DNA of 64,000 nt, taken from assembly GCF_055900595.2 (NCBI RefSeq), contig NZ_CM148325.1; one strand, given 5' to 3'. This document shows positions 25,418 through 25,696 of the stretch, piece by piece; the stretch's first letter is position 1; each line of letters begins with the position of its first letter. A program made the position numbers and the translations under genes. The notes under the pieces are model-generated. The model had not been told where the DNA came from. It worked only from the letters and a program-made list of their open reading frames with translations, and ran no database searches.

Positions 25418-25696
25418 ATGAAACGTAACCTGATAAAGGTGGTAAAAATGAAGCCTTATTTTGCTGCTTTGATGTTATCAGTCTCTGTCCTTCCTGCTTA
25501 TGCTGGTCCGCTCGGTACTGCTGATAAAGCCGACCTACCGCAAAGCAATGTCTCCAGCCCAATGATGGCCCAGTCGCTCAGGCAACCAGACCTGCAACCA
25601 ATATCGACGGACAGGAAAACAGAATGTTTTCGCCTTTACACACCAGATCGCAAACCGGGGGTGAACTGCGTTCCTGATGGCTCGACAGGCCATTAA
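25418..25696 (+). CDS. Small secreted protein (putative periplasmic, yjbT-like); start may be the internal ATG at 25448
   Basis: 92-aa ORF with a signal-peptide-like segment MKPYFAALMLSVSVLPAYA followed by a hydrophilic region with two cysteines; hairpin terminator immediately downstream. Confidence 0.55.
   Translation: MKRNLIKVVKMKPYFAALMLSVSVLPAYAGPLGTADKADLPQSNVSSPMMAQSLRQPDLQPISTDRKTECFRLYTPDRKPGVNCVPDGSTGH

Follow-up and report, generated by a model that had tools for sequence, protein, structure and literature searches.

Between the minus-strand genes psiE (24718-25130) and yjbH (25743-27839) of the 64-kb window, by which we mean the whole stretch of DNA analysed, a short open reading frame runs on the + strand from ATG 25418 to TAA 25694-25696 (92 codons), convergent with yjbH. 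The question raised by this locus is whether the frame encodes a small secreted protein, as a sequence-only reading had proposed, and, if so, from which start codon it is translated and which part of its product is under selection. The ORF product is 100% identical over 92 aa to YjbT of E. coli K-12 MG1655 (b4620), and it matches the Pfam family PF17089 ('YjbT, uncharacterised protein family') along model positions 1-92 of 92 (E = 1.4e-65), with a score of 217.7 bits against a gathering cut-off of 27. The ORF is yjbT (b4620), a genuine protein-coding gene and PF17089 member that has already been catalogued. The earlier description of a small secreted or periplasmic protein agrees with this family match, with the conservation of the frame and with the purifying selection described below. 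By contrast, its remark that such proteins are often unannotated or uncharacterised holds for the second word only, because the gene carries a name, a locus tag and a Pfam family, and RefSeq labels the position between psiE and yjbH 'periplasmic protein' or 'hypothetical protein'. YjbT is thus uncharacterised rather than unannotated, and the gene itself is not new.

Searches of NCBIfam, PADLOC and PHROGs gave no YjbT match, and a sequence profile search of the PDB returned nothing even at E = 10; YjbT is not a known defence protein and not a phage protein. Literature text on 'yjbT' is nearly absent and consisted of a FlhDC SELEX peak inside yjbH and a table of statistical associations from machine learning, while 'b4620' was found in one RNA-seq study (PMC3734233). 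The protein sequence and the chromosomal position are those of K-12, with the order psiE-yjbT-yjbH matching NC_000913.3. Two differences from the K-12 locus were observed nearby. The intergenic REP region of the studied strain is about 93% identical to that of K-12, and on the other side of psiE a 1.8-kb xylE segment (1,792 bp, K-12 4240739-4242530) is missing at window positions 24617-24719, so that the malG 3' end with the MalH sRNA region directly abuts the psiE stop codon. The same malG-psiE adjacency is present in the closest E. coli genomes.

The coding features considered below are as follows.

25418 to 25696, + strand: yjbT reading frame of the K-12 and RefSeq annotation, 92 aa plus stop.
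25436 to 25442, + strand: Shine-Dalgarno sequence AAGGTGG, 5 nt 5' of ATG 25448.
25448 to 25696, + strand: probable true yjbT coding sequence, 82 aa plus stop, from homologue starts and the strong Shine-Dalgarno sequence.
25448 to 25504, + strand: predicted signal peptide MKPYFAALMLSVSVLPAYA of the Sec/signal peptidase I type, 19 codons, from rule-based checks.
25505 to 25618, + strand: variable linker of 38 codons, rich in P, S, Q and D, with high pN and no predicted secondary structure.
25619 to 25693, + strand: conserved C-terminal module TECFRLYTPDRKPGVNCVPDGSTGH, 25 residues, with near-zero non-synonymous change between genera.

Nei-Gojobori comparisons of E. coli with Kluyvera or the L003 lineage separated these segments clearly. 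The C-terminal 25 codons differ at 0-1 non-synonymous positions on about 57 sites while carrying 14-18 synonymous differences on about 18 sites, which is saturation. Saturated synonymous sites together with invariant amino acids in TECFRLYTPDRKPGVNCVPDGSTGH are explained only by selection at the protein level, meaning that the ORF is translated and that its function is located there. The 38-codon linker shows pN = 0.50 and pS = 0.59-0.89 between genera and appears to evolve almost freely at that distance, and the signal peptide is intermediate in both non-synonymous and synonymous divergence. Among Escherichia sequences the linker carries 4 synonymous changes and 0 non-synonymous ones, indicating that it is not entirely unconstrained.

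The position of the start codon was then judged from ribosome-binding strength and from homologues. Predicted pairing with the 3' end of 16S rRNA reaches -8.5 kcal/mol for ATG 25448, placing it in the top 1.6% of the 937 ATGs on the + strand of the window, compared with -3.3 kcal/mol (26th percentile of the same set) for ATG 25418. ATG 25448 and its Shine-Dalgarno sequence are kept in nearly all homologues sampled, and the AAGGTGGTAAAAATG block is identical in five aligned sequences and near-identical in more distant homologues. The members from outside Escherichia, 75-85 aa in length, all start at the methionine that matches 25448. By contrast, the position of ATG 25418 is kept within Escherichia, reads ATA in Kluyvera and has no ATG in the L003 lineage; it also lies 1 nt 3' of a stable hairpin. 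The main yjbT start is therefore probably ATG 25448, giving an 82-aa precursor, and the internal ATG that had been offered as an alternative in the sequence-only reading would be the true one. The mature peptide (63 aa) is the same from either start.

Two readings that dispute the coding sequence itself can be weighed on this evidence. That the frame is untranslated, the conserved region being an RNA or the ORF a product of chance, would fit the silence of the protein literature: yjbT does not occur in the supplementary text (possibly incomplete) of tetracycline ribosome-profiling start-site, N-terminomics and large absolute proteome studies, and no published report of the YjbT protein, its export, signal cleavage or disulfide was found in the literature searched. 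However, synonymous saturation over invariant C-terminal amino acids, a near-invariant Shine-Dalgarno sequence and ATG, a frame open in five genera and the lack of any Rfam family match speak against it so strongly that we regard it as effectively refuted. The other reading accepts translation but takes the 92-aa form from ATG 25418, with a long and highly basic n-region beginning MKRNLIKVVKMKPY, as the main E. coli product. This start is the one used in the K-12 annotation and by PGAP, it is retained within Escherichia, and the Pfam model covers all 92 positions, though Escherichia sequences evidently served to build that model; with RNA-seq 5' ends at 25397-25412, ATG 25418 may moreover fall inside the transcript. 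Against this stand the loss of the codon in Kluyvera and L003, the downstream methionine at which non-Escherichia members begin, an unremarkable Shine-Dalgarno pairing of only -3.3 kcal/mol with a hairpin 1 nt upstream, and the fact that several of the mapped 5' ends (25406-25412) leave almost no leader. The longer form is thus unlikely to be the main product, and the 82-aa precursor is used for residue numbering from here on.

From the internal methionine the N-terminus reads MKPYFAALMLSVSVLPAYA|GPLG, with the predicted cut after AYA. Our signal peptide call uses rule-based checks only, namely the charge of the n-region, the h-region and the residues at -3 and -1. In E. coli these are K2, the core AALMLSVSVL (mean Kyte-Doolittle 2.37) and A-Y-A at -3/-1. 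The nine clean family members are built alike: positions 2-3 hold one or two basic residues, a hydrophobic core follows (mean Kyte-Doolittle 1.5-2.7 over 10 residues), and behind it come a proline and a small-x-small site, which falls at residues 17-21 (in E. coli AYA|G). The signal-peptide-like N-terminus noticed earlier is therefore consistent with a three-part Sec/signal peptidase I arrangement, and the cleavage site on which that proposal had been made to depend is predicted in every member. A Tat substrate was rejected, with no RR in the first 12 residues of any of the nine members, and so was a lipoprotein, with the lipobox [LVI][ASTVI][GAS]C present in none of them; the E. coli signal has no cysteine, the first being residue 60 of the 82-aa form. 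In the proposed mechanism, the first 19 residues would act as a Sec signal peptide to be cut by signal peptidase I after AYA, and cleavage would release a 63-aa (6.8 kDa) peptide into the periplasm.

The calculated mass of the E. coli mature peptide is 6,783 Da, with a pI of 6.75. An AlphaFold2 model from a nine-sequence alignment had a mean pLDDT of 56 and a pTM of 0.14, with the signal segment as the only helix and the linker at a pLDDT of about 50-60. On this model, mature YjbT looks mostly intrinsically disordered, apart from any constraint imposed by the cysteines. These two residues, already noted in the sequence-only reading, are encoded by TGT 25625-25627 and TGC 25667-25669; the mature part contains exactly two, always 13 residues apart, in 9/9 members. 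Across these nine members from five genera, T58, C60, P70, G71, N73, C74, P76 and D77 are invariant, and the core T-x-C-[FY]-x(9)-P-G-[VIL]-N-C-[VI]-P-D is found in all of them including the present one. Basic residues (DRK, DHV or DRR) stand just ahead of the conserved block. Cysteine invariance and fixed spacing in an exported peptide lead us to presume a 15-residue loop closed by a disulfide.

We propose that the first 38 or so residues of the mature peptide would serve as a disordered, freely evolving spacer and the last 25 residues as the functional part. The invariant cysteines would probably be oxidised by DsbA to close the loop C-FRLYTPDRKPGVN-C, which is followed by the invariant V/I-P-D, and we speculate that the loop and this tail bind a periplasmic or envelope partner. 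The absence of a catalytic fold makes a ligand or modulator role likelier than an enzyme, and an enzymatic role for a 63-residue peptide with no predicted structure is unlikely. Taken together, a stand-alone yjbT gene read from the 82-aa start, exported through Sec and acting by way of a C-terminal Cys loop, which on the speculative last step would bind an envelope partner, is the reading we favour, and we hold it to be probable.

Two other fates of the exported chain compete with this reading. The hydrophobic N-terminus might stay uncleaved or become lipid-modified, leaving YjbT anchored in the membrane with its C-terminus in the periplasm. It is the sole predicted helix, three members have a cysteine inside the signal region, and signal cleavage is itself a prediction from sequence. 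However, no member has a lipobox, those cysteines are preceded by Pro or Thr, and E. coli has no such cysteine; the core also spans only about 10-13 residues before a helix-breaking proline and a canonical A-x-A in all members, a pattern usual in cleaved signals and a short length for a transmembrane segment. We therefore consider an anchored YjbT very unlikely. Alternatively, YjbT could be a pre-pro-peptide: after export the linker would be removed, setting free the C-terminal disulfide loop as a small bioactive or signalling peptide, possibly outside the outer membrane. Such a fate would suit the three-part build of a signal, a fast-evolving spacer and an invariant Cys-containing C-terminus, the basic residues directly before the conserved block, and the lack of a predicted fold. 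The layout is also like that of the heat-stable enterotoxin (STa) pre-pro-peptides, in which a signal and a poorly conserved pro-region precede a short, conserved, Cys-containing C-terminus. By contrast, STa has six cysteines in three disulfides and is borne on plasmids or transposons, whereas YjbT has two, is chromosomal rather than carried by plasmids or phages, and shows no sequence similarity to STa, to any other toxin or to any solved protein. No exporter or processing gene lies nearby, no sign of processing or secretion was found, and the excess of synonymous over non-synonymous changes in the linker within Escherichia hints that it is not a throw-away spacer. Release of the loop as a processed peptide is accordingly improbable in our view. 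Retention as a soluble periplasmic peptide, the reading we prefer, resembles a class of small Sec-exported E. coli periplasmic proteins of unknown or stress-related role, which share a cleavable signal, a mature size below 10 kDa, a gene transcribed singly up to a terminator of its own and restriction to few taxa. YjbT departs from that class in having no predicted fold, no homology to any of its members, and in concentrating its conservation in the 25-residue C-terminal Cys loop.

The regulatory features around the coding sequence are given next.

25350 to 25367, strand not assigned: palindrome ATCACCCATTCAGGTGAT (ATCAC-N8-GTGAT), candidate regulator site, with conserved half-sites and spacing.
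25402 to 25416, + strand: 5' hairpin TGTTCC-TCT-GGAACA, from the conserved stem, the minimum-free-energy fold and RNA-seq 5' ends.
25701 to 25734, strand not assigned: hairpin common to the convergent yjbT and yjbH, from fold energy and stem conservation.

Directional RNA-seq of K-12 found b4620 transcribed in all seven conditions with no operon partners, and its assembled 5' ends correspond to window positions 25397-25412, just upstream of the coding sequence (PMC3734233). The gene is thus a stand-alone single-gene transcription unit that is expressed. A search of Cappable-seq and SMRT-Cappable-seq supplements found nothing for yjbT. Judged from the RNA-seq ends, the mRNA begins at or close to the 5' hairpin, with the palindrome centred no less than about 38 nt upstream of the start. 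The hairpin forms in the minimum-free-energy fold of 25397-25480, and eight aligned homologues retain its GTTC(C)...(G)GAAC stem around loops of 3-5 nt; as most of the pairs do not vary at all, there is little covariation to support the stem. Such freedom in loop length points to an element that acts as a nucleic-acid hairpin and perhaps stabilises the 5' end.

The palindrome starts about 97-99 nt 5' of the ATG equivalent to 25448 in every homologue aligned. All homologues, even those whose gene neighbourhood is unrelated, retain the half-sites at a spacing of 8 nt, while the intervening and flanking bases vary, and the palindrome is the only exact match in the 64-kb window; a search of the window for further copies of the two palindromes gave nothing beyond chance. 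Fixed spacing, with half-sites rather than base pairing conserved, suggests a dimeric DNA-binding regulator, which the palindrome probably binds, although it could instead be an RNA or DNA structure and not a protein-binding site. To our knowledge it matches no known E. coli operator, and sigma-E, sigma-54, CRP, FNR and NarL-type readings of the upstream elements, judged by eye, mismatch in spacing or half-site. A consensus scan for sigma-70 promoters over 25100-25800 gave no site.

Downstream, the hairpin that the sequence-only reading had placed directly behind the ORF is indeed present, beginning 5 nt after the yjbT stop codon. It has 12 bp (25701-25712 paired with 25723-25734) and a fold energy of -23.2 kcal/mol (z = -4.0), and none of 200 shuffled sequences folded as well. 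The stem is kept in seven homologues, with changes on both sides in 3/8 pairs. The U-tract on the + strand is weak (UUUCCUCU), and the tail on the - strand, serving yjbH, is UUCAUUCUUAAU. A consensus terminator scan made no call at this hairpin because its loop is 10 nt. We regard it as a likely two-way intrinsic terminator shared by yjbT and yjbH.

Of 5426 complete E. coli genomes, 5415 carry yjbT, in one copy and with 95-100% nucleotide identity, and a coding-sequence annotation lay under the yjbT match in 30/30 rows sampled across the ranking. The family as a whole is scarce. A full HMM search of 1.84 billion cluster-representative proteins gave 12 PF17089 matches, and 14 came from a word-indexed search over 5.8 billion proteins, several of them frameshifted E. 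coli or Shigella variants. Named carriers within Escherichia are E. coli, E. albertii, E. whittamii and unnamed species, and outside it Kluyvera georgiana, Pseudocitrobacter sp., Buttiauxella izardii, Buttiauxella sp. and Shimwellia pseudoproteus; the pattern-based genome scan for yjbT is a lower bound, E. coli itself not being listed by it. Conservation of the reading frame in relatives, which had been proposed as a test, thus holds for E. coli, for further Escherichia species and for four enterobacterial genera besides. PF17089 is a very small enterobacterial family of patchy spread, and this narrow, patchy distribution points to a lineage-restricted envelope peptide and not to a core function. 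Carriage on mobile elements was rejected: a phage search gave no yjbT matches, and the six matches in a plasmid search all lie on replicons of 0.65-4.9 Mb, which by size are mislabelled chromosomes.

The malG-psiE-yjbT-yjbH position recurs in Kluyvera georgiana and in one metagenomic lineage (two overlapping contigs, L012/L013), while in other lineages yjbT stands beside a glycoside hydrolase/PTS cluster, a csbD-like gene or a DUF2767 gene. With no conserved neighbour, gene context gives no functional clue and suggests no binding partner. The upstream palindrome, the 5' hairpin and the terminator hairpin nevertheless accompany yjbT even into these unrelated neighbourhoods. A more elaborate proposal is that the released 25-residue loop is a ligand, which either signals or modulates an envelope sensor or enzyme, that it is expressed from a promoter under activator or repressor control marked by the palindrome, and that site, hairpin, coding sequence and terminator moved between enterobacterial lineages as a single cassette; as a whole we rate this as a long shot.

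YjbT remains one of the E. coli K-12 genes still without an assigned function, and the present analysis leaves that unchanged. What it adds are modest refinements: a probable correction of the start, a C-terminal module, cis-elements that travel with the gene and a patchy distribution. For work on yjbT, the likely start codon guides the placing of constructs and tags, the 25-residue Cys loop is the part to mutate or synthesise, and the two conserved cis-elements can be used to find the regulator of the gene.

Several minor observations concern the locus and its surroundings. Between yjbT and yjbH, Kluyvera carries an inserted 151-aa hexapeptide-repeat, acetyltransferase-like gene (L011 5377-5832, Kluyvera georgiana; L006 528-983), and the E. 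coli gap holds the shared likely terminator only. Six family entries from E. coli/Shigella or metagenomes (P0006, P0012, P0013, P0014, P0017 and P0020) are frameshifted or extended versions, and aberrant forms include a 60-aa Shigella flexneri fragment and 97-aa forms reading into the terminator, which suggests occasional pseudogenisation of yjbT or sequencing errors in a minority of strains. REP/BIME-type repeats fill the divergent psiE-yjbT intergenic region at 25228-25375 (sub-threshold naRNA4 matches on both strands), and such sub-threshold REP matches were all that Rfam returned over 25100-25800. REP copies lie directly 5' of the palindrome in E. coli and E. albertii but are absent in Kluyvera and the syntenic metagenomic locus. 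On the - strand at 25274-25417, PGAP calls a 'hypothetical protein' of 47 aa (in the nearest genome, WP_000487760.1) whose end abuts the start of yjbT. This call, probably spurious, lies over repeat DNA and over the conserved elements upstream of yjbT.

Elsewhere in the window, Rfam placed full REP/naRNA4 copies at 17857, 29979 and 48125-48385, and gave gathering-level matches to the STnc430 sRNA at 29765-29913 (+) and to a lysine riboswitch at 31969-32165 (+). A complete rRNA operon occupies 53668-58679 on the - strand, with 5S, 23S, a tRNA and 16S (Rfam). Finally, a full-length RNA-OUT match at 45043-45112 (-, 97 bits) suggests an IS10-type element in the window.
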